A DNA stretch of 64,000 bases from the NCBI GenBank assembly GCA_910587445.1, contig CAJULE010000001.1:99748-163747 (forward strand), written 5' to 3'. Below, piece by piece: positions 9,060 through 52,885 of the stretch. Source of the DNA: an uncultured Christensenellaceae bacterium (lineage in GTDB: Bacteria > Bacillota > Clostridia > Christensenellales > Pumilibacteraceae). Both the position numbers and the translations under genes were made by a program. The notes below the pieces were generated by a model. The model was not told the origin of the DNA. It made no database searches and saw only the letters and a list, made by a program, of their open reading frames with translations. Every line of letters starts with the position of its first letter. Positions within the stretch are counted from its first letter, which is position 1.

Positions 9060-12000
9060 ATGGCAAAGGATAAGCTCAGGATGAGCAACAAAAGGTTCAT
9101 GGCGATCATGATACCCGTAGGAGTATTCTTGCTTGCGCTCATAATCGTTGCGGTGTGCGTAATGAATTCTTTTGCGCCGGTCATGGACGCATTCTTCGGA
9201 AGAGGAAAGCGCCACATAGCCAACGTGGAAGGAACGGAAAATTGGGACACGAATTACTATGACGTAAAATACAAGAGTTATGACGAGTCCATAAAGGCGG
9301 CTACGCAAAACGCCAAGAAAGTTACCGACGAAGGATTTGTTCTTATGAAGAACGACGCGCCCGCAGGCAAAGAAAAGTCGCTTCTTCCGCTCGAACCCAA
9401 GGCAACGGTTACGCCGCTGGGAATGCGTTATGACGAAGCTGTCTACGGTATATACGGCTCGGGCTCGCCGCACGACGGCATGGGCATGAAAATGTATTTC
9501 GGCAGTGTCGTTTACGACGATAACTATAAAGTTACGAATCCGTGTTCGGTGGACATTCCCGAGGCGCTCGACGCGGAGTTTACGGTAAACAAAGCGCCGT
9601 TCGAGAAAATGAAGGCTTCCGAATGGGAAGTGATCGGGGAAGCTGACGGAACAATACCGTGCAAAGAAATCGATTCTATAAACGGTTGCGCGGGCAGTAA
9701 TACTTTCCTGTACGAATATAACCCGTCGATTTACGCAGGTACCGAGACAAGCTGCGCAAACAGCGTCGGTCTCGTGTTTATCGGCAGAGACGCGAGCGAG
9801 GGCGGAGATCTCAAGCTCGACGGTTACACGGACGGAACGCCTCACGAGCTTGCGCTCTCGAAGAACGAGCGCGATACGGTGAAGTTCGCAAAGCAGAACT
9901 GCACAGGCGGCGTAGTGGCGATCATAAACTCCTGCAACCCCATGGAACTCGGCGTACTCATGTCGGGCGAGCTCGAGGTGGACGCAATCGTTTGGATAGG
10001 CTTCCCGGGCAGCAACGGCGCGGAGTCGCTTGCCGACATTCTCTGCGGTAAGGTCAATCCTTCGGGCAGAACCGCCGACATCTGGGTAAGCAACCTTATG
10101 AACGACCCTACGTATAAGAACTACGGTTCGTACATCTATTCGTCTGCCGAAGTCGCAAACAGCAAGGCAATCGGCACTTCGTTTGTAGAGTACGAAGAGG
10201 GCGTATATGTGGGCTATCGCTACTATGAGACGGCGGCTGTCATGGACGGCTCGTTCGATTACGACAAAGCCGTAGTATTCCCGTTCGGCTACGGACTTTC
10301 CTACACCGAGTTCGAGCAGAAAATAACTTCGTTCGATACGTTCGGCGACGATATAACCGTCAAAGTTACGGTGACGAACAAAGGGGCAGTGGACGGCAAG
10401 GACGTCGTACAGCTCTATTACACAGCACCCTATACGCAGTGGGACATTGACAAAAAGATCGAAAAGCCGGTCAAAAACCTCGTTGCGTTTGCAAAGACGG
10501 ACATCATAAAGGGCGGACAAAGCGAAGAAGTGACGCTCACGTTCTCGAAAGAGGACATGGCTTCATACTGCTATACCCGCGAAAACAAGAACGGAACTAA
10601 GGGTGCATACGTGCTCGAGAGCGGCGATTATACGGTTACGCTCGGTAAAAACAGCCATGAAGAATGGGATAAAAAAACCGTACATATAAATGAAGAATGG
10701 TTCGACGAGTCCAATCCCCGTCGGAGCGAAAAGAACGGACAGTCAAAGCTCGACGACGAGGGCAACCCCATGGGAGTGACTGCTGTCGGAGGCGATCTCG
10801 ATTTCATAGCCGCAAGCAATCTTTTCGAGGACAGCAACACGTATATGAACTCTTCCACGGTAACGCTTCTTTCCCGTGCGGATTGGAAGAATACCCAACC
10901 TACGACTCCGACGGGCGAATCGTTTAAAGCCCCGAAAGCCGTTTGCGACACGATAGACGCATACAGCAGAGATACGTTCGACTATAAAGCAGATAAGCTT
11001 CTCGGAAACGTCGAAGGCAGTGCAATCTACAAAGCAACCGCACCGACGTCGAAGGCGCAGAACGGTCTGACCGTTGCGGATATGCGCGGACTCGACTACT
11101 ACGACGAGAGTTGGGAACTTCTTCTCGATCAGATTGATTACTCTAAGACCGAAGAGATAAACAAATTGCTTTACGGCGGCGCATACGGTCTCGGTGCACT
11201 CGATTCGATAGGATTGCCTGCTACGAGCAGTGCGGAAGGACCTGCGGGCATAGGATTGTTTGCTCATCTGTTTTACGGAGATACCCGACTTACGAAGATA
11301 CCGAAGATGTGCGGCTATGCGGCTAACACCGTGCTTGCGAGCACGTTTAACGAAGAGCTTGCCTATCTTACGGGCGCGTCGGTAGGGCAGGAAGCATATT
11401 GGTTCAGAAAGGAAGGCGAGACCACTTATCTCAACGGTTGGACAGGGCCGGCGATGAACCTTCACCGCAACGCGTTCTGCGGACGTAACGCCGAGTACTA
11501 CAGCGAAGATCCGGTGCTTGCCGGCGCAATGGGCAGAAACGAAATTTCGGGTGCGGGCGACAACGGACTCTATACGATATTCAAGCACTTTGCCATCAAC
11601 AACATAGAGACGGCTAAGACGGCGGGCGACGGCATATGTACTTGGGCAACCGAACAGACCATGAGAGAAATATATTTCAAGGTATTCGAGGACGTGTTCA
11701 AGAACTCCCGCCGCGAGGTCAAGTACATCGCTGACGATAACGGCACGGTTAAGACGAGAGTGGTTCGCGGCGCAACGGCGGTCATGACGTCGTTCAACCG
11801 TGTGGGTGCGATTCCCGCAGGTTCGAACTATGCGCTCATAACCGAACTTTTGAAAAACGAATGGGGCTTCCAGGGCTTCGTACAGTCCGATATGCCGAGT
11901 CAATCCAATAAGGATCAAATGCTCAGAGCGGGCGGCGCGGTGGAAATGAACTCTTCGGTTTCCGTAGCGGAGGATCTTTCCAGCCCGACCGCTCAGTGGC

Positions 12001-26819: not shown

Positions 26820-26848
26820 TTGACGAGCTCACGAAAGCATGATATAAT
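26820..26848 (+). promoter_or_regulatory. strong sigma-A-like promoter (TTGACG-N17-TGATATAAT, extended -10)
   Basis: TTGACG at 26820-26825, TATAAT at 26843-26848 preceded by TGa. Confidence 0.5.
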
Positions 26849-39979: not shown

Positions 39980-40079
39980 GGCAAGGCGCAGCTTGAATTC
40001 GTACTGTAAAACATTGCCTATAGCGGCAATCCGAAATCAAAAAAAATAAAATCGAAAAATCAATCGGAGGATTATAAAA

Positions 40080-44238: not shown

Positions 44239-44268
44239 CGCCCCGAAACTCGATTTCGGGGTTTTTTC
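44239..44268 (+). terminator. rho-independent terminator
   Basis: ccccgaaa ctcga tttcgggg, then TTTTTT. Confidence 0.65.
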
Positions 44269-44346
44269 TTTGCGAAAAAGTATGTCGAAATTTCCCGTAT
44301 ACGGATTTTCCAAACGCGAAAGCTATAAGTACAAATATTATATTAT

Positions 44347-44376
44347 TTGACAATATACATTATTTTGATGTATACT
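44347..44376 (+). promoter_or_regulatory. sigma-A-like promoter TTGACA-N18-TGtTATACT (extended -10)
   Basis: TTGACA at 44347-44352, TATACT at 44371-44376 preceded by TG. Confidence 0.45.
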
Positions 44377-44412
44377 GTTTCGAGTGGCAGTAAAAAAAGC
44401 ATATATTTCCTT

Positions 44413-44440
44413 GACTTTTTTTCGGGGGGGGGTATACTTA
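44413..44440 (+). promoter_or_regulatory. second promoter TTGACT-N16-TATACT with a G9 homopolymer in the spacer (candidate phase-variable promoter)
   Basis: TTGACT at 44413-44418. Spacer ttttttc + G9 (44426-44434). TATACT at 44435-44440. About 55 nt upstream of the lipoprotein ATG at 44495. Confidence 0.45.
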
Positions 44441-44494
44441 GTCTGTCACTGCGTGATTCGGTGTTTCGCGGCATTTCGCGAAAAGGAGGATTGA

Positions 44495-46963
44495 ATGAAA
44501 AAATTTCGGTACAGCCTTTTGCTTGTCGTCGTTCTTGCGCTATGCGCGGGAGTCTTTGCGGCTTGCGACGGCGAAAAGGTGTCGGTGTCGCTCGACGCAA
44601 ACGGCGGCACGTGTACGGTGCAGACGGTTACGGCGCAGGTGGGCAAAAAGCTCGCGCCCGTGCCGGCAGCCGAGCGCGACGGTTATGTGTTCGAGGGCTG
44701 GTTTAAAAGCGCTTCGGGCGGCGAGCGGTGGAACTTCGAGACGGATAAGGTCAAGGGCTCAATGACGCTTTACGCGGGTTTCCGCCCTCAGACGAGCGAT
44801 TTTGTCGGCGTCACTTACCATGTGGGCGACGGAGTCGATTCCGCACCCGTAAGCCGTGACGTGAGAAAGGGCAATCTTTTGCCCGTGCCGTCCGACCCCG
44901 TGAAAGACGGCTATCGTTTCGACGGCTGGTTCAAAGACAGCGAGTGTAAATCGGCTTGGGATTTCGGTTCCGATACCGTGGACAGCGAACTTACGCTGTA
45001 CGCAAAGTGGTCGAAGATACATACGGTTACGGTCATGCACGGACAGGAGCGTATCGCGAGCGTAGCATACGAGGACGGCGCGGCGCTCAGGAACATATTG
45101 CCGCTTATAGACGGACTTGTGTATACGGGGCTTTACGAGGACGCGGAGTTTAATTCCGAAGCCATGGCGAACTCTGCCGTCACTAAGGACGTCACATATT
45201 ATGCTCGGTACGAAAAGCCGACGCCCGAAAGCTTTTTCGATTACGAAAGCGAATACGGATATGTGAATATAAAAGGTCTTAAGGACGAATTCGATGGAGA
45301 CGAGGTGATCATTCCCGAATCCATTTTGGGAATACCGGTAAGAAACGTGTCGTTCGATTCGTCCGACAGGTACAATCGCGTAGTCATCTCTTCGAATGTC
45401 ATCAGTTTCGATACCCATGTCAGTACCGAAAAGCTTGTCATTTCACCCGCCAACGTAAATTACGCCACATACGACGATTGCATATACAGGAAGGAATCCC
45501 ACGGCAATCGTTGTTATCTCATGCACATTCCCGAAAATAAGCGTGTAATAACCGTAATGCCGGGTGCGCAAATAAGCGGAACAAGTAGTGACGGGAAAAT
45601 TTTCGTTCTTTCCGACGACGCATATGCTCATGAAAACGATTCTCTCGATTATAAACGCATAGTTGTTCCCGACGAGTATTACAACGATTATTCCGGACTT
45701 ATGTCGAACGTCGAAGGTTATTTGTTCCGTAAGTCGGAGATGACGGGCACGATGCTTGCGAAAAACGGCAAGCTGTATATGTGGATCGAGGGAGACAAGG
45801 CGACGGTCGGAACGGACGACGACGGCATAACCGAAATAGTCGACGGAGCTCTTTACGGCGTGCACGAAGTGACGTTCGGCGAAAACATAACCTCTATAGA
45901 GGGCAAGCTGTTTTCGAATTGGTCGAGCACGAACGGGAAAGCCGACAGCTATAAGTATACTTTTCTCGGAAGCGTGCCGCAAAGAACGACGGCTTACGAG
46001 TTCTTTCCGCAAGTTTACGATGTCGAGGGCGATACTTTGGAGATAAAGGTCAAGAAAGAGTACGTCACGGCTTATAAAGACGATTGGAATATGGACTATT
46101 ATCAGTTCAAGCTTGTGAGCGGCGAAACCTCTCTTGTGGAGGACGGCAAGCTCATCGCCTGGTTCGGAGGCGACACCGCCGTCGTGGGCACTGCGACGGA
46201 CGGCATAACCGTGATAGGCGACGGTGCGCTTTACGGTGTGCACGACATCACCATAGACGAGGGAATAGCCGAAATCGAGGGATATAATATACTCGCCGGT
46301 TACGAATACGGGCGTATTCATAATATAAGCGTAACTTTCTTGGGCGATTTGCCCGTCCTGAACGGATTATATTGTCCCATAAACACGAGAAACGGAAGCA
46401 CGTTTGTCGTGAACATTCCCGAGCAGTACGTAGAAAAATACGCGAAAAAGCTTGTCGATGTATGGAAGTATGTGAAGATCGACACCGAGGACGAATTTAC
46501 CGTAATAAACGGCGAGCTTTACAAGTATAACGGCAACGATACGGAGATCCATATTCCCGCAGGCGTCGTCGACGTAAGGAACAACGCGCTTCCCGAAAAC
46601 ATGACAAAGCTGTATTTAGCAAGGACGGAAACGAACAGAGATCTTGATATAAGTATTTTCGGCTTGAATCTTATTTCGGACCGACTCGACGTATATGTGT
46701 CGAACGGACATTTTACCGTTTCCGAAGGAAGCGGAACTCGCGACGTATATGTAAGGTATAGATTCGATTACCTGCGGTTCTTTTCGGTAGACGAGATCGG
46801 TAACGAAAACGACAAGGCGGGAACGGTCACATTCCACGTCGATACGTCGGATACGACGGCGCTCGAATACTATACGAAATATTGTAAGGACGCGGAATCG
46901 AATTCTTCGTCTGTTTATACGAAATACGAAGCTGTAGAGTGGGAGGCGGACGCTAATGCTTGA
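44495..46963 (+). CDS. large surface lipoprotein with Listeria-Bacteroides (Flg_new/InlB-B-like) repeats followed by BspA-type LRR_5 repeats
   Basis: Signal + lipobox LALCAGVFAAC. Three about 70-aa repeats with GY.F.GWF....W.F motif. Later repeats of the DGALYGVHE/DITF type. 822 aa. Confidence 0.7.
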   Translation: MKKFRYSLLLVVVLALCAGVFAACDGEKVSVSLDANGGTCTVQTVTAQVGKKLAPVPAAERDGYVFEGWFKSASGGERWNFETDKVKGSMTLYAGFRPQTSDFVGVTYHVGDGVDSAPVSRDVRKGNLLPVPSDPVKDGYRFDGWFKDSECKSAWDFGSDTVDSELTLYAKWSKIHTVTVMHGQERIASVAYEDGAALRNILPLIDGLVYTGLYEDAEFNSEAMANSAVTKDVTYYARYEKPTPESFFDYESEYGYVNIKGLKDEFDGDEVIIPESILGIPVRNVSFDSSDRYNRVVISSNVISFDTHVSTEKLVISPANVNYATYDDCIYRKESHGNRCYLMHIPENKRVITVMPGAQISGTSSDGKIFVLSDDAYAHENDSLDYKRIVVPDEYYNDYSGLMSNVEGYLFRKSEMTGTMLAKNGKLYMWIEGDKATVGTDDDGITEIVDGALYGVHEVTFGENITSIEGKLFSNWSSTNGKADSYKYTFLGSVPQRTTAYEFFPQVYDVEGDTLEIKVKKEYVTAYKDDWNMDYYQFKLVSGETSLVEDGKLIAWFGGDTAVVGTATDGITVIGDGALYGVHDITIDEGIAEIEGYNILAGYEYGRIHNISVTFLGDLPVLNGLYCPINTRNGSTFVVNIPEQYVEKYAKKLVDVWKYVKIDTEDEFTVINGELYKYNGNDTEIHIPAGVVDVRNNALPENMTKLYLARTETNRDLDISIFGLNLISDRLDVYVSNGHFTVSEGSGTRDVYVRYRFDYLRFFSVDEIGNENDKAGTVTFHVDTSDTTALEYYTKYCKDAESNSSSVYTKYEAVEWEADANA

Positions 46964-49736
46964 AGTCAAAAACGTAACCAAAGTATACGGCGGCGGACGG
47001 AACGCATTTAAGGCGCTCGACGACGTAAGCATAAATTTCGGCTCTCGAGGGCTGGTGGTCGTGCTCGGCAAATCGGGCTGCGGCAAGTCGACGCTCCTCA
47101 ACATAATGGGCGGACTCGATTCTCCGACGAAGGGCGAAGTCGTAATAAACGGAAGAAGCACGAAAAGCTTTAAGCGCGCAGACTTCGACGCCTACCGCAA
47201 CACCTTTGTCGGCATAGTCTTTCAGGAGTTCAACCTCATAGACGAGATAAGCGTGTTCGACAACATAAACATGACGATGAAACTCCAGGAAAAGAGCGCC
47301 GACGTCAACACGGTCGACGAGGCGCTTGCCATGGTCGGACTCGCAAACCTCGGCTATCGCAAGCCGAGCGAGCTTTCGGGCGGACAGAGGCAGCGCGTCG
47401 CGCTTGCGAGAGCGCTTCTCAAAAAGCCCGAAATAATCCTTGCCGACGAACCTACGGGCGCGCTCGATTCGGTCACGAGCGAAGAGGTGTTCGAGACCTT
47501 AAAGCGTATTGCCCAAAGCAAGCTCGTCATAGTCGTCACGCACAACCGCGAGCTTGCTCACGCTTATGCCGACAGAATAGTCGAGATAGTCGACGGAAAA
47601 ATCGTCGGCGACAGAGTGCGCGAGACGGCGGCGGACGACGGCGTAAAGGAACTCGAAGCCGGCGTAATAGAGGTCGGCGCGGGCGGCAGGGTCACTGCGG
47701 AGCAACTCAACGCGCGGCTCAAAAAGGGCAAAACCAACTACATAGGCTTAAGCCACGAAAAGGACAGAATAGCTCTTGCCTATCCCGAAACGGTCGACGG
47801 ATTTTACGAGGCGCAGGATTCCGCGGCTTACAAAAAGACCGAACAGACCGACATAAAGACGGACAACAAGGAGTTTAAGCTCTCGAAAGGCGGGCTCACC
47901 TTTAAGGATTCGTTCAAGCTTGCGAGGGAGGGCACCAAGCGCGCGAAAAAGCGCTATCGCTTCCTTACCGCAATAACGACCATATGCTTTACGATGTTCT
48001 CGCTTGCCCTCATAATCGGCATGGTGAATCTTCCGTCGGTTGCGGCGAAATCGGCATTCGACAGCGGCGCGCAACCGCTTGTCGCGGTGGGCTATATAGT
48101 CGAAGATTCGACTATGCTCACTAAGATGACCGAAGAAAGGATAGACGCAGTGCGCGGAATAATGGGAGAGGACGGTGTGTGCGCTTCACTCGTATACACC
48201 ACGCCCATGTTTGCGGACAGGAGCGCCGACGAATACTACAACACAAACAATTGGGACGGGTTCTATCAGGAAGACGAAAGCTATTATTTCGGATCGGGAC
48301 TTACGGGATTTTCGTTCGACTGTTTCAACAACGTCATAGACTGCAACGACATTACGCAATTGGGACTGAATGCGGTCGTCGGCAAGACGACTTGCGCGGA
48401 CATGAGCGAAATCATAATCTCCGACTTTGCGGCGTACGTCATGACGCGCCGAGGCATAGTCGGCTACGACAAAGCCGGCAAGTACGGGATTCTCTATCCC
48501 GAAACGGTCGCAGACGTCGTAGGCTGCCGAATAGAGCTCGGCGAGACGGAGAAGTTCTACACCGTCGTCGGACTTTTCGGGACCGATTACGAAAGCTATA
48601 AGTCGATAATCGGAGGAAGTTCGCTCGACCCGAAAACTCAAGAGCTCACCGAGACGCTGGGCATAAACAGCGCCTTCCTTTACCGCACGATGATAGGCAA
48701 GATCGGTTTCGGTGCGGAACTCGCTTCGCAAAAGAAGACGAGCGGTCAGTCGTCGAACTATTCATATACCATATCGGCGTCGAATGTGCAAGGATATGTG
48801 CCGTTCAATTCGGTGGATAATTCCGATTTCACTTACAATCGCGAGAAATTCGAGCGCAATATGTATTGGTCCGCTACGGGCGATAATCATGACGAAGCGC
48901 CCGAAAAGCTCGGAGACGACGAAGTCATCGTCACTCTCGACGTCATAAGGGATCTTCTCGGTCTATACGACGTGGACGAGGCGAACATAAAAAACAACGC
49001 GCAGTTTATCACGCTTATGAACGCGCCTTGCACCTTCAAGCTGTATATGCGTTGGGACAGCAGCGTGGGAGAAGAAAAGCAGGTCAAAATCGCAGGCGTA
49101 ATGTACGATAACTACCCGAGAGAGCTCTATATGAGCGACAACATGATAGACGAGTACAGCAAAGGAATTACGTCGTACGATTTGATGTTCTTTTCTAAGG
49201 GCTCGACGCGCACGGGACTCGAAAGCAAGTTCTCGGCGCTCAAGAAGGACGGCTTCGTGTTCGGTACGGCTACGGCGGACTTGCAGAGATTGCGCGAATT
49301 CGACGATATGCTCAACATAATGGGACAGGTGTTCTTCTACATTGCCATAGCGATGTTGGTGCTTGCCTTCCTGATTACGTTCAACTATATGACATCGTCC
49401 ATACGCTTCAGGACCAAGGAGATAGCCGTATATCGCGTCATAGGCGCAAAGACTTTCGACGTATCGAAAATATTCCTTACGGAAGGCGGCTTCATTGTCG
49501 TAAAGACCACGATCGCGGCGATAATCCTTTCGTTCGTGATGTCGCTTATTCTGAACAGCATTATGGGAAGCATATTGTCGGCGTTCGGACTTGCCGTGAC
49601 CCTCATAAACTTCAATTGGCTCATAGAGCCCATAGTGATACTTATCGGCAGTGCGATCACGGTGTTCTTGTCCTCTATAATACCCATTATGCGTGTGTGC
49701 GGAAAGAAACCCGTCGAAGCGGTAAAATTGATATAA
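46956..49736 (+). CDS. ABC transporter, fused ATP-binding domain + FtsX/MacB-type permease (926 aa)
   Basis: Walker A GKSGCGKST, signature LSGGQRQRVALARA, Walker B ILADEPTGALD. C-terminal 4-TM FtsX-like domain with a large extracytoplasmic loop. Start overlaps the lipoprotein stop. Confidence 0.85.
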   Translation: MLEVKNVTKVYGGGRNAFKALDDVSINFGSRGLVVVLGKSGCGKSTLLNIMGGLDSPTKGEVVINGRSTKSFKRADFDAYRNTFVGIVFQEFNLIDEISVFDNINMTMKLQEKSADVNTVDEALAMVGLANLGYRKPSELSGGQRQRVALARALLKKPEIILADEPTGALDSVTSEEVFETLKRIAQSKLVIVVTHNRELAHAYADRIVEIVDGKIVGDRVRETAADDGVKELEAGVIEVGAGGRVTAEQLNARLKKGKTNYIGLSHEKDRIALAYPETVDGFYEAQDSAAYKKTEQTDIKTDNKEFKLSKGGLTFKDSFKLAREGTKRAKKRYRFLTAITTICFTMFSLALIIGMVNLPSVAAKSAFDSGAQPLVAVGYIVEDSTMLTKMTEERIDAVRGIMGEDGVCASLVYTTPMFADRSADEYYNTNNWDGFYQEDESYYFGSGLTGFSFDCFNNVIDCNDITQLGLNAVVGKTTCADMSEIIISDFAAYVMTRRGIVGYDKAGKYGILYPETVADVVGCRIELGETEKFYTVVGLFGTDYESYKSIIGGSSLDPKTQELTETLGINSAFLYRTMIGKIGFGAELASQKKTSGQSSNYSYTISASNVQGYVPFNSVDNSDFTYNREKFERNMYWSATGDNHDEAPEKLGDDEVIVTLDVIRDLLGLYDVDEANIKNNAQFITLMNAPCTFKLYMRWDSSVGEEKQVKIAGVMYDNYPRELYMSDNMIDEYSKGITSYDLMFFSKGSTRTGLESKFSALKKDGFVFGTATADLQRLREFDDMLNIMGQVFFYIAIAMLVLAFLITFNYMTSSIRFRTKEIAVYRVIGAKTFDVSKIFLTEGGFIVVKTTIAAIILSFVMSLILNSIMGSILSAFGLAVTLINFNWLIEPIVILIGSAITVFLSSIIPIMRVCGKKPVEAVKLI

Positions 49737-49749
49737 GGAGGGAAGTACG

Positions 49750-52437
49750 ATGTTATTGGAACTTAAAAACATACAGAAAACCTATTCCACGAAAAACGGC
49801 GTGACCTTCAGGGCGCTCAACAACGTGAGCCTCACCTTCGAAAGTTCGGGTCTCGTCTACATCGTCGGTGCCTCCGGCAGCGGCAAATCCACGCTTTTAA
49901 ACGTCATAGGCGGGCTCGATTCGTACGACAGCGGCGAATACGTTCTCGCGGGCAAGCGCATGAACGCCCTGCGAGGCTCGGAAGTGGACAGCCTCAGAAA
50001 CAAGCTTATGGGCTTTGTCTTTCAGGAGTTTAACCTGATAGACACGCTTTCCGTATTCGAAAACGTGAAGCTTGCTTTGGATATGCAGAGCCGAAAGGAC
50101 AATAAGGCGGTGCACGAAGCGCTTGCCGCCATGGGCATAGACGACAAGGCGAAGAATAAAACGAAGGATCTTTCCGGCGGTCAGCGCCAACGCGTTTCCA
50201 TTGCGCGCGCTCTCGTCAAGGATCCGAGAATCATTCTCGCAGACGAGCCCACGGGTGCGCTCGATTCGGCGACTACCGACGAAGTCGTCAAGATATTGAA
50301 GGATCTGTCGAAGGACCGTCTCGTAATAGTCGTCACGCACGACATGGACATGGCGGCAAAGACGGGCGACCGCATAATAGAAATGAAGGACGGTTGCGTA
50401 TATCGCGACGTGCGCAGAAAAGCGGAGGGCGAAAGCGTCGTGACCACCGACACGCAGCTGTTCTCCGACACGCTCATGAGCGTGCCCGCAGGCGTCAAAG
50501 TGAGCGATAGCGACGTAGAAGAGATAAACGAAATAATGGCTCAGTCCATGCGCAAGACGTACATAAACGTAGAGTCCGACCCGCGAAAGGTAAAAGCCAT
50601 GTTCCCCAATCTTCGCGAAGCCGTCAACAGCGACGGCAAGAAGCCGAAAGCGGGCGAAGACGAAGCTCTATCTTCCGAAGCGTTCGTTCCGCATAAGCGT
50701 GTAGACAGCCCCATGGAAAGCGTGGAGTTCAAAAAGAGCCGTCTGCCTCTTTTGAAGTCGATGAGGCTTGCTTTAAATAATCTCAACTTCAAAAAAGCGC
50801 GCCTTGCGCTCACCATAATCATTTCGTTCATAGCCTTCATACTGTTCGGCGTGGCGCAGTCGTTTACGTCGTTCGACGTGCGCGCAGCGTATACGGCGAC
50901 TCTTGTCCGAGAGGATTTTAAAAGCATGGCGGTCACAACCGCGGGCAGCGAATTTTCTTCCGCAAAGAAGCGTATCGCCTCGAGCGACTTTATAAAGCTT
51001 TCGGAAACCGTCGAGGGAGTAAAGTATTCTCAGGTTTACGACATGACGTTTATACCCGTTCCCGGAGACGGGCTTTCGATACCGAACGCGCTCTCATCGT
51101 TCGACGGCGTTATCGAAATCGACGATATATCCGACTGCGGTTTTTCCGTAATGTACGGCTCGAGCAGCCCCAAGGGGACGGACGGCGCGATCATTTCGGA
51201 ATATGCGGCGCGTTCGCTTTTGGAAACGGGTGCGGTAAAGGGCAAGGACATATCCGACCTTATAGGCATGACGCTCAATCTTATGAGCGGACCGAACTTC
51301 ATTATAGACGGAATTTTCGAATGCGGCGACATAGACGATCTTTTGTACGGGAACAACGTCGATTGGCAGGCTTTTAAGTCGAAGCTGGAAGGCGGTTGGG
51401 CGCAACTGTACGTTTCGAAAGGATTTATCGATTCGTACGGCAAGAATATGTTCGAAAGCGGATCGAGCGTGCAATACAAGCTTAAAGATTCGTCGGCTTC
51501 GAACAACTCCTCTTACGATACGCGCGCGACGCTCGAGTTCCTGCCCGTAGGTTCGTTCCCCGAAGGTTACAACGTCGTGCCCGTCGAAGGCATGGGCGTC
51601 ATCGAACGCCCGGGCGACATTATCGTTTCTCAAAACGTCATAAGCGGCATTACGTCGGTATCGCCATCGAGCGATTACGTATCGCTGCTTCGTGAGTTCA
51701 ATGCCGACCCCGAACGCAGATTTACCGTATATTTCGACAAGACCGGCGGAAACTCCAAGATTCCCGGCTATGCGACGGCTGATTTCCGTATCGTCGGAGT
51801 CATTGACGGCAAGGAAGGTTCCGACGGATATTTCAACGACAGCGTCATTTTCATGCTCGAGAGCGAACGGGAAAATATCATAGACAACGTATTCTATCCC
51901 GTCAAACTCATTGCCGCGCTCGACGGCGTTGACGCGGCTCGATTCGTCGACGCGGTATACGACAACGGCTTCGGTCTGTCTGCGGAGTTTATAAGCAATT
52001 ACGATATGGCGCTCACGTTCATATCCGTACTCAGGTATGTGCTTTTGGGTCTGTCGCTGTTGTTCTGTATTCTTGTAATCGTGCTGTTGTACGGCTTTAT
52101 CTCCACGTCCATTCGTATGACGAGAAAGCAAATAGGCATACTGCGCGCGCTCGGCGCAAAGAAGGCCGACACGTTCAAAATTTATGCGGTGGAAGGATTT
52201 ATCGTCACGATATTCTCGCTTGTGCTTGCTATCGTCGCCATTATGATAGGCGCACCCATGCTCAACGCCCTTGTCGGTACGATGTTCGGACATTACTTCT
52301 CGCTGTTCACGATAGGCGCGATAGTTTATGTCACGATGGCGGCGCTTGCCCTCGCCGTGACGCTTGTATCCGTATTTATACCGCTTCGGAAGTTCAACAA
52401 AATAACTCCCGTTTCCGCGATAAGCGGCAAAGATTAA
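49750..52437 (+). CDS. ABC transporter, fused ATP-binding domain + FtsX/MacB-type permease (895 aa), tandem paralog
   Basis: GASGSGKST, LSGGQRQRVSIARA, ILADEPTGALD. C-terminal FtsX-like permease. RBS AAGGAGGGAAG. Confidence 0.85.
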   Translation: MLLELKNIQKTYSTKNGVTFRALNNVSLTFESSGLVYIVGASGSGKSTLLNVIGGLDSYDSGEYVLAGKRMNALRGSEVDSLRNKLMGFVFQEFNLIDTLSVFENVKLALDMQSRKDNKAVHEALAAMGIDDKAKNKTKDLSGGQRQRVSIARALVKDPRIILADEPTGALDSATTDEVVKILKDLSKDRLVIVVTHDMDMAAKTGDRIIEMKDGCVYRDVRRKAEGESVVTTDTQLFSDTLMSVPAGVKVSDSDVEEINEIMAQSMRKTYINVESDPRKVKAMFPNLREAVNSDGKKPKAGEDEALSSEAFVPHKRVDSPMESVEFKKSRLPLLKSMRLALNNLNFKKARLALTIIISFIAFILFGVAQSFTSFDVRAAYTATLVREDFKSMAVTTAGSEFSSAKKRIASSDFIKLSETVEGVKYSQVYDMTFIPVPGDGLSIPNALSSFDGVIEIDDISDCGFSVMYGSSSPKGTDGAIISEYAARSLLETGAVKGKDISDLIGMTLNLMSGPNFIIDGIFECGDIDDLLYGNNVDWQAFKSKLEGGWAQLYVSKGFIDSYGKNMFESGSSVQYKLKDSSASNNSSYDTRATLEFLPVGSFPEGYNVVPVEGMGVIERPGDIIVSQNVISGITSVSPSSDYVSLLREFNADPERRFTVYFDKTGGNSKIPGYATADFRIVGVIDGKEGSDGYFNDSVIFMLESERENIIDNVFYPVKLIAALDGVDAARFVDAVYDNGFGLSAEFISNYDMALTFISVLRYVLLGLSLLFCILVIVLLYGFISTSIRMTRKQIGILRALGAKKADTFKIYAVEGFIVTIFSLVLAIVAIMIGAPMLNALVGTMFGHYFSLFTIGAIVYVTMAALALAVTLVSVFIPLRKFNKITPVSAISGKD

Positions 52438-52457: not shown

Positions 52458-52490
52458 AAGTGTGCGGACATTTCGGTCCGCGCACTTTTT
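52458..52490 (+). terminator. terminator hairpin after ABC operon
   Basis: aagtgtgcggac atttc ggtccgcgcactt, then TTTT. Confidence 0.55.
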
Positions 52491-52536
52491 GATTTACGCG
52501 AACATTGTCGTTTCGAGATATTTCTTTTACGTACTC

Positions 52537-52565
52537 TTGACAAAACGGGCGTAGTACCGTATACT
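52537..52565 (+). promoter_or_regulatory. consensus-like promoter TTGACA-N17-TATACT
   Basis: TTGACA at 52537-52542, TATACT at 52560-52565. Confidence 0.5.
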
Positions 52566-52597: not shown

Positions 52598-52885
52598 ATG
52601 GAGTTCGGAAATATTATTTCTGCGGCGGAAGGCTTCGAATGGACGAGCATACTTGTCGCGATCGGCGTCATAGCCGCGGTATTTATAGTGCTGAAGCTGT
52701 TGAAATCGGGAGTAAAGAAGATCATAGGCTTCATAATAAACGCCGTAGTCGGATGCGTGATATTATATGTGTTTTCGCTGTTTCCGTCCATAGAGTTTTC
52801 GATCGTTTGGTGGCACGCGCTTGTGACCGGACTCTTCGGCATTCCCGCCGCCGTAATAATAATCGTCTGCTATTTCGTTCTTTGA
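52598..52885 (+). CDS. bofA: BofA-like small membrane protein (pro-sigma-K processing inhibitor family)
   Basis: 95 aa with two TM helices. C-terminal LVTGLFGIPAAVIIIVCYF resembles the BofA ...GILGIPG...VV motif. Confidence 0.55.
   Translation: MEFGNIISAAEGFEWTSILVAIGVIAAVFIVLKLLKSGVKKIIGFIINAVVGCVILYVFSLFPSIEFSIVWWHALVTGLFGIPAAVIIIVCYFVL

Follow-up and report, generated by a model that had tools for sequence, protein, structure and literature searches.

Does a run of nine G residues in the spacer of a promoter serve as an adjustable part of that promoter, or is it a passive stretch of DNA that mutates readily? The question was raised by a 64,000-nucleotide region from an uncultured, Christensenella-like gut bacterium (contig CAJULE010000001.1; this whole stretch is referred to below as the window). 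A sequence-only reading of the window had reported a G9 homopolymer inside the spacer of a near-consensus promoter preceding an operon for a surface lipoprotein and two transporters, and had proposed it as a candidate phase-variation switch. The homopolymer was present as described, with TTGACT and TATACT separated by a spacer of 16 nucleotides (nt); the coordinates in that reading were each 2 too high and are corrected in the list below, in which the promoter holding the tract is named P2 and a second promoter-like site upstream of it P1.

44347 to 44376, forward strand: P1, a tract-free promoter-like site (TTGACA at 44347-44352, an 18-nt spacer and TATACT at 44371-44376) that matches 11 of 12 consensus positions
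44411 to 44416, forward strand: the P2 -35 hexamer, TTGACT, unchanged in every strain and in each of the four species compared
44417 to 44432, forward strand: the P2 spacer of 16 nt, read from the sequence as T6 C G9
44424 to 44432, forward strand: the G9 homopolymer, hypervariable in length, which abuts the -10 box and is the sole run of six or more G or C residues in the window
44433 to 44438, forward strand: the P2 -10 hexamer, TATACT, invariant across the species

The P1 -35 box lay 64 nt upstream of that of P2, and the end of the P2 -10 box was 56 nt from the start codon of the lipoprotein gene (ATG at 44495).

Our interpretation, to which we assign a probability of roughly 0.7, is that the poly-G run in the P2 spacer is a hypermutable repeat whose slippage would retune the strength of P2 and would thereby act as a graded dial for the three-gene operon. 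In the mechanism that we propose, G residues would be gained or lost by slipped-strand mispairing during replication, and the separation of the -35 box from the -10 box would shift base by base, from 15 nt for G8 through 16 nt for G9, 17 nt for G10 and 18 nt for G11 to 19 nt for G12. At any length, the tract directly adjoins the -10 box and supplies G at positions -13 to -15, so that spacing alone would change. The strength of P2 would change along with the spacing, heritably and reversibly, and P2 would drive all three genes, one for a surface lipoprotein that has InlB-type repeats and two for ATP-binding cassette (ABC) transporter subunits of the MacB type. The tract-free P1 probably provides a floor of expression that is independent of the tract, and we would expect the operon to behave as a graded dial, or "volume control", more than as a clean switch between on and off. 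The phase-variation proposal is supported by length polymorphism and by retention of the tract across species, and the conserved, tract-free P1 argues for graded modulation over strict on/off switching. The comparative data support classification of the locus as a poly-G promoter-spacer contingency locus, a known mechanism, conserved across species in an uncultured lineage of gut Clostridia.

Analyses of the promoter region indicated that both P1 and P2 have the features expected of putative sigma-70/sigma-A-type promoters, with near-consensus hexamers set 16-18 nt apart and correctly placed before the gene. P2 matched 10 of the 12 sigma-70/sigma-A consensus positions, and P1 and P2 were the top-scoring promoter-like sites in a 3-kb scan. 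The hexamer matches alone were not significant, as four promoter-like sites were found in 3 kb compared to 2.4 +/- 1.7 in shuffled sequences. The other near-consensus promoters of the window (at 26820, 42053 and 52537) all had 17-nt spacers, and TATACT, which was common to P1, P2 and the promoter-like site at 52537, appears to be the usual -10 box of the organism. The last of these sites (TTGACA-N17-TATACT at 52537-52565) lies just past the operon terminator and precedes an open reading frame (ORF) for a hydrophobic protein of 95 residues (52598-52885). Given the 17-nt norm of the organism, the observed tract lengths straddle the optimum, and G10 is the predicted optimum. P2 is presumably used for transcription, and a tract giving spacers of 15-19 nt, set against that norm, would be expected to alter transcription of the genes downstream. 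The arrangement TTGACT-T6 C G9-TATACT at 44411-44438 is consistent with that of simple sequence repeat (SSR) contingency loci in which the repeat lies in a promoter spacer.

The tract is also exceptional for this genome. Elsewhere in the 64 kb, G runs reached at most 5 residues and C runs at most 4, when a third-order Markov model of the window predicted 2.2 G or C runs of at least 6 and 0.013 runs of at least 9. The genome avoids runs of G or C, and the lone exception lies exactly inside a promoter spacer.

To determine how the tract varies within the species, we compared same-species loci from many independent assemblies, which were found by exact-protein look-ups; a scan of the JGI metagenome collection with an exact-flank pattern for the promoter of this species returned no match. 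Twenty same-species assemblies had identical sequence on either side of the tract. The tract itself was G8 in one of these, G9 in 13, G10 in one, G11 in four and G12 in one, and one of the two outcomes that the sequence-only reading had named as counting against its proposal, an invariant G9 across related genomes, was not borne out. With the lipoprotein allele as a proxy for strain, the lengths were grouped as follows:

The lipoprotein allele of the window: G9 in six samples
Allele P0122: G9, G9 and G8 in three runs of one study (SRR176846xx)
Allele P0001: G12, G11, G11, G11 and G11 (G11 and G12 both within ERZ136320xx)
Allele P0123: G9 in three samples
Two further alleles: G10 and G9

Different lengths were therefore found within one lipoprotein allele and one study, both as G8 versus G9 and as G11 versus G12; these differences, like the contig breaks at the tract described below, may hint at heterogeneous lengths inside one population. 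In addition, three loci with G9 (L006), G11 (L009) and G12 (L008) were just 2 substitutions apart in 6.5 kb, a difference of up to three G residues on an almost constant background. Alignments of approximately 16 kb around the locus contained 60-90 substitution columns, and the only length differences in them were in the G tract (five alleles), in one run that was A7 or A8, and at one position where a divergent strain had a single additional T. The G tract is thus the most length-variable site in these 16 kb. The variable A run (A8 at 40039-40046 in the window) is located between rplJ and rplL and was A7 in three of five strains. Polymorphic length in near-identical strains, with constant flanks, is what would be expected of an SSR contingency locus.

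Two contigs of the lineage with G11-12 (L228:1-60 and L229:1-55, from ERZ13632047 and ERZ13632038) stopped at the tract and ended in 40-55 nt of poly-C. These ends are a dark-cycle artefact of two-colour sequencing chemistry, and the tract is thus a cause of assembly breaks. As these breaks indicate that the tract is hard to sequence, the G11 versus G12 calls of that study are less secure. The poly-C artefact does not account for the occurrence of G8, G9, G10 and G11-12 across different studies.

The tract was also found to be conserved across species. Full-length orthologues of the lipoprotein were identified in three further species, at 67%, 64-66% and 43% identity. A search of genome contigs by lipoprotein alignment yielded a single true orthologue among 80 loci (L016, from "uncultured Christensenella sp." in a mouse gut catalogue), the search patterns having fallen in the widespread Flg_new repeat, and it did not recover the species of the window itself. 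The orthologous loci kept the three-gene operon wherever the contig was long enough (L015 and L233 stop inside the second gene), and their upstream neighbours differed, being either rml genes or a LytTR two-component system. All of them had the dual-promoter layout and a tract of G8-G9 abutting TATACT, with the following P2 spacers:

L013, L016 and L224: tttcggc followed by G9
L014 and L233: ttacctc followed by G9
L015: T6 C followed by G8

In the alignment of the four species, the conserved blocks were both hexamers of P1, the -35 and -10 boxes of P2, the tract and the ribosome-binding site, and the remaining intergenic sequence, including the part of the spacer that is not G, had diverged. 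Without selection, a homopolymer would be likely to decay, yet this tract has been retained at a fixed position, which argues for selection on the tract itself. Both P1 hexamers were likewise kept in the four species, with a spacer of 18 nt in the window and 17 nt in the other three. The sequence-only reading had described this upstream site as TTGACA-N18-TATACT with an extended -10 motif of the form TGt; the tract-free promoter-like site was confirmed, and the extended motif was not, since in all four species the TG abuts TATACT directly (gaTG-TATACT).

At L015, the locus of the species with 43% identity, the operon is divergent from the gene for a LytTR response regulator and from a gene of unknown function that encodes 394 residues. 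In the intergenic region there (L015:1940-2070), motifs resembling AATTGCAAT recur and are possible LytTR sites. These features hint at additional, conventional regulation at that locus.

We also searched for the same arrangement beyond this lineage. A scan of gut and other metagenomes with the pattern TTGACW-N(6-11)-G8-TATAMT identified at least 120 loci (L096-L215). Among the loci listed, 63% of 103 downstream ORFs had signal-peptide-like N-termini and 26% also had a lipobox, compared to 21% and 3%, respectively, of 656 control ORFs from the same loci (Fisher p = 8e-17); the signal-peptide predictor was crude, and this p value overstates the significance because the same orthologous families were counted repeatedly among the matches. 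The Pfam matches of 74 non-redundant products of the listed loci included LPXTG, SLH, SpaA, Big_3/4, MucBP, LRR_4 and TAT signals, in addition to regulators and enzymes. Six of the seven multi-member site families among the loci listed differed in G length, at a mean flank identity of 94-99.6%. Examples of such families are L132/L156/L193/L201, L096/L123/L209, L127/L191, L158/L161/L214 and L139/L176. Further runs of at least G8 in the pattern-selected loci were again mostly in promoter spacers; two runs of that length were present in 563 kb of loci that had not been selected by the pattern, and neither was in a promoter.

One contig, L121 (JGI24702J35022_10000058), carried four poly-G spacer promoters within 14.6 kb of its minus strand, at about positions 11052, 4872, 2012 and 788. 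Two of these had identical 30-nt upstream flanks (TTGACTTTTTGC-G9-TACACT). The four promoters preceded proteins of 277, 261 and 239 or more residues that had no Pfam match, and a DeoC aldolase. A fifth run, also G9 and on the minus strand, was in a less promoter-like context. This arrangement suggests that a single genome holds several contingency loci as a set. In viral contigs (IMG/VR), G8 abutting the -10 box was matched eight times, C8 at that position was not matched, and G8 abutting the -35 box was matched three times; although the numbers are small, these counts suggest a preferred strand and position for the tract. The contigs concerned (L237-L247) are viral or prophage, with eight having G8 against the -10 box and none having the C8 equivalent.

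Based on these observations, we tentatively suggest, with somewhat less than even confidence, that the locus is one case of a widespread class in gut and other anaerobic Firmicutes. In this class a -35 box, a few bases and G8-12 abutting a -10 box would vary how strongly exported proteins, among them lipoproteins and cell-wall-anchored proteins, are expressed, as a repeat-based counterpart in Clostridia of the invertons of Bacteroidales. No relevant description of promoter switches based on homopolymers or SSRs was found in a literature search that covered gut Clostridia, Lachnospiraceae, Ruminococcaceae and Christensenellaceae, which is not proof of absence; the poly-G spacer mechanism appears not to have been charted in gut commensals of the Firmicutes.

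Other features of the regulatory region in the window, some of which bear on the alternatives considered below, were as follows:

44240 to 44270, forward strand: the intrinsic terminator of the upstream gene (194 residues), a 9-pair stem followed by a T run, which forms the 5' edge of the regulatory region
44392 to 44398, forward strand: an A7 run within the conserved block GGCAGTAAAAAAAG, 13-19 nt 5' of the P2 -35 box
44464 to 44483, forward strand: a leader hairpin, TTTCGCG-N6-CGCGAAA, directly 5' of the ribosome-binding site
44484 to 44489, forward strand: the ribosome-binding site, AGGAGG, as read from the sequence

A hairpin was present at the place of the upstream terminator in the orthologous loci as well. 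The A run was kept in the three closer species at lengths of A7-A9, and it is possible that it represents an UP-element-like A tract. The surrounding block between P1 and the P2 -35 box can be written as GGCAGT-A7-9-G(T/C)ATATA (window, L013, L014 and L233), with A7, A8 or A9 according to species. The leader hairpin had a predicted fold of -12.8 kcal/mol, no more stable than shuffled sequences (z = -0.03), and a similar stem with other loops was found in L013 and L014.

The proposal of a graded dial has to be weighed against several points that tell against it. Short-read assemblies carry some error in homopolymer length, and some SRR and ERZ records may be one sample assembled twice. G9, which gives a 16-nt spacer, one off the optimum, was the mode in three species, and the lengths partly followed lineage, with six G9 assemblies sharing one lipoprotein allele and all those with G11-12 another; the two observations together indicate that switching may be slow relative to our sampling. 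In addition, the consensus-like, conserved P1 could make changes at P2 phenotypically small. Frequent switching within a population is something that we presume, as is the advantage that variable expression of this surface system would confer on cells facing, for instance, phage, host antibody or competitors.

Some of these same points could also be read as signs of a passive, mutation-prone spacer, in which the lengths reflect neutral drift plus assembly noise and P1 effectively drives the operon. The presence of G9 in 13 of the 20 assemblies, the partly lineage-bound lengths, the conservation of a P1 closer to consensus than P2, and the contig breaks and poly-C artefact at the tract would all agree with this explanation, which we nevertheless consider unlikely. 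It would predict decay by substitution, but G8-G9 always abuts the -10 box, down to 43% protein identity, while the adjacent spacer bases change. A passive spacer would also fit poorly with the invariance of the flanking hexamers, with the lack of any other G or C run of at least 6 in the window, and with the recurrence of an equivalent layout elsewhere before exported proteins. Another alternative, in which G9 is in truth constant and the length differences arose purely in sequencing or assembly, draws on the difficulty of long G runs for two-colour Illumina chemistry and on the two contigs that end in poly-C at the tract. We find it scarcely credible, as five assemblies of one lipoprotein allele (three from ENA and two from Logan, some possibly of the same samples) agreed on G11-12, nine other assemblies agreed on G9 in two other alleles, and G8 and G10 came from further studies. 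Consensus errors of +2 to +3 would not be expected, and the other tract families in metagenomes varied likewise.

Two further explanations of the G run were considered. The run could act as RNA in the 5' leader of the P1 transcript, whether through its structure, by binding a protein or by causing a pause, with the P2 "hexamers" being coincidental. P1 is conserved, and its transcript would hold both the tract and the hairpin before the ribosome-binding site. We regard this as improbable to a greater degree than a passive spacer, because 8-12 G residues would not be tolerable in a structural RNA, the leader fold was no better than shuffled sequences, and exact TTGACT and TATACT at promoter spacing were invariant while the other leader sequence diverged. 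An Rfam search of the intergenic region gave no family match, its one hit being a sub-threshold chance match on the upstream terminator, and the reading of the region as an RNA element was dropped. Alternatively, the run could be the binding site of a regulator located in the spacer, of the MerR type or another, with the length differences as tolerated noise. Conservation of the tract across species and the LytTR two-component system adjoining the operon in L015 are the observations that would fit, and we judge the idea very unlikely nonetheless: the tract is without dyad symmetry, there is no adjacent regulator gene in the window, the upstream neighbours vary among species, and the tract layout precedes many unrelated genes in unrelated contigs. 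A repeat that tunes P2 through its length is the explanation that we retain.

The genes that this repeat would control, and the end of the operon, are listed here:

44495 to 46963, forward strand: a surface lipoprotein of 822 residues with Flg_new/InlB B-repeats (Pfam Flg_new, E = 1e-33; InlB in the PDB)
46956 to 49736, forward strand: a fused ATPase and FtsX permease of the MacB type, 926 residues, with ABC_tran and FtsX domains
49750 to 52437, forward strand: a second fused ATPase and FtsX permease, 895 residues, with ABC_tran and FtsX domains
about 52460 to 52491, forward strand: a terminator-like hairpin and T run, read from the sequence, that ends the operon

The first two genes overlap by 8 nt (the ATG of gene 2 is at 46956 and the stop codon of gene 1 at 46961-46963), and gene 3, which has an AGGAGG of its own, starts 13 nt past gene 2. 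These genes are bounded as a three-gene operon by the upstream gene's terminator and by the terminator-like hairpin past gene 3.

The lipoprotein has a signal peptide and a FAAC lipobox, of which Cys24 was invariant in five orthologues, and it has three Flg_new/InlB B-repeat stretches, two of them at the default threshold. The match to the InlB B-repeat was solid when an AlphaFold2 model of the protein (pLDDT 76) was searched with Foldseek. Together, the signal peptide, the lipobox Cys24 and the InlB B-repeats indicate a product that is predicted to be surface-exposed. The C-terminal region of approximately 600 residues had no family match at threshold. The sequence-only reading had labelled the protein as both Flg_new and leucine-rich repeat (LRR); the former assignment was upheld, and the latter is unproven, since LRR_5 stayed below threshold (15 bits where the cut-off is 27.7; E = 0.021) and the AlphaFold model had weak Foldseek matches, with poor superposition, to BspA-type LRR surface proteins (E = 1e-3 to 1e-2). 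An exported lipoprotein with adhesin-type repeats is the usual cargo of contingency loci.

The assignment of the other two products as fused ATPase-FtsX transporters of the MacB type agreed with their ABC_tran and FtsX domains and with their best match to a solved structure, MacB 5lil (E = 2e-47). Hydropathy analysis of both proteins indicated an N-terminal ATPase, a first transmembrane segment at about residue 336 or 352, an extracytoplasmic domain of approximately 430 residues and a C-terminal FtsX region. In the 895-residue protein three more transmembrane segments follow after about residue 764, and in the 926-residue protein there is an overlapping hydrophobic cluster after about residue 791. 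This predicted layout is consistent with that of MacB-type (type VII) ABC transporters. The two proteins shared 27% identity, which suggests that they are probably partners in a heterodimer.

Knowledge of phase variation in gut bacteria comes mostly from invertible promoters and methylation switches, and mainly from Bacteroidales. To our knowledge, surface variation in the abundant, poorly cultured Clostridia is much less clear. The locus described here is a concrete case in an uncultured Christensenella-like lineage, in which tract length can be read from metagenomes and would predict the expression state of the lipoprotein and transporters. If the wider class is real, tract lengths in existing metagenomes could report selection on commensal Firmicutes by phage, immunoglobulin A or competitors, and its sites could be flagged as systematic sources of assembly breaks and of apparent strain differences.

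Comparable use of a homopolymer has been demonstrated by experiment for porA of Neisseria meningitidis, in which, according to PMC7864442 (citing van der Ende et al.), a poly-G tract lies between the -35 and -10 boxes and its length sets both the spacing and a graded level of transcription that is best at 17 nt. As at the window locus, the G tract of porA is located in a spacer whose sigma-70-type promoter serves a gene for a surface protein. However, porA belongs to a Proteobacterial pathogen, whereas the locus in the window belongs to an uncultured gut commensal of Gram-positive lineage, controls an operon for a lipoprotein and MacB-type transporters, and has a conserved second promoter upstream; its effect on expression is predicted from the sequence.

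In Treponema pallidum, the gene for the OmpW homologue tp0126 likewise has poly-G between the -35 and -10 boxes, with transcription best at a spacing of 17 nt (PMC7864442). The treponemal tracts are 7-11 G residues long and vary within and between isolates (PMC7864442), the same range as the G8-G12 found here. The tracts of T. pallidum tprE/G/J/L overlap or follow the -10 region and act differently (PMC7864442). T. pallidum is a spirochaete pathogen, and the effect at tp0126 was demonstrated by reporters and fragment-length analysis, whereas our interpretation of the window locus relies on comparative evidence.

Other examples are vlp of Mycoplasma hyorhinis (poly-A) and Vmm of M. mycoides (TA repeats), lipoprotein genes that are switched by repeat indels in the promoter or its spacer (PMC10502178). 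As at our locus, these are genes for surface lipoproteins in a Firmicutes-related lineage with the repeat inside the promoter or spacer. They differ in having A or TA repeats, multigene lipoprotein families and clear ON/OFF switching, while the locus in the window has G residues, a single operon and a response that is probably graded. The invertons of gut Bacteroidales and of Clostridioides difficile also generate heritable, reversible heterogeneity of the cell surface (PMC11892184), but they do so with a site-specific recombinase and inverted repeats, neither of which belongs to the locus in the window.

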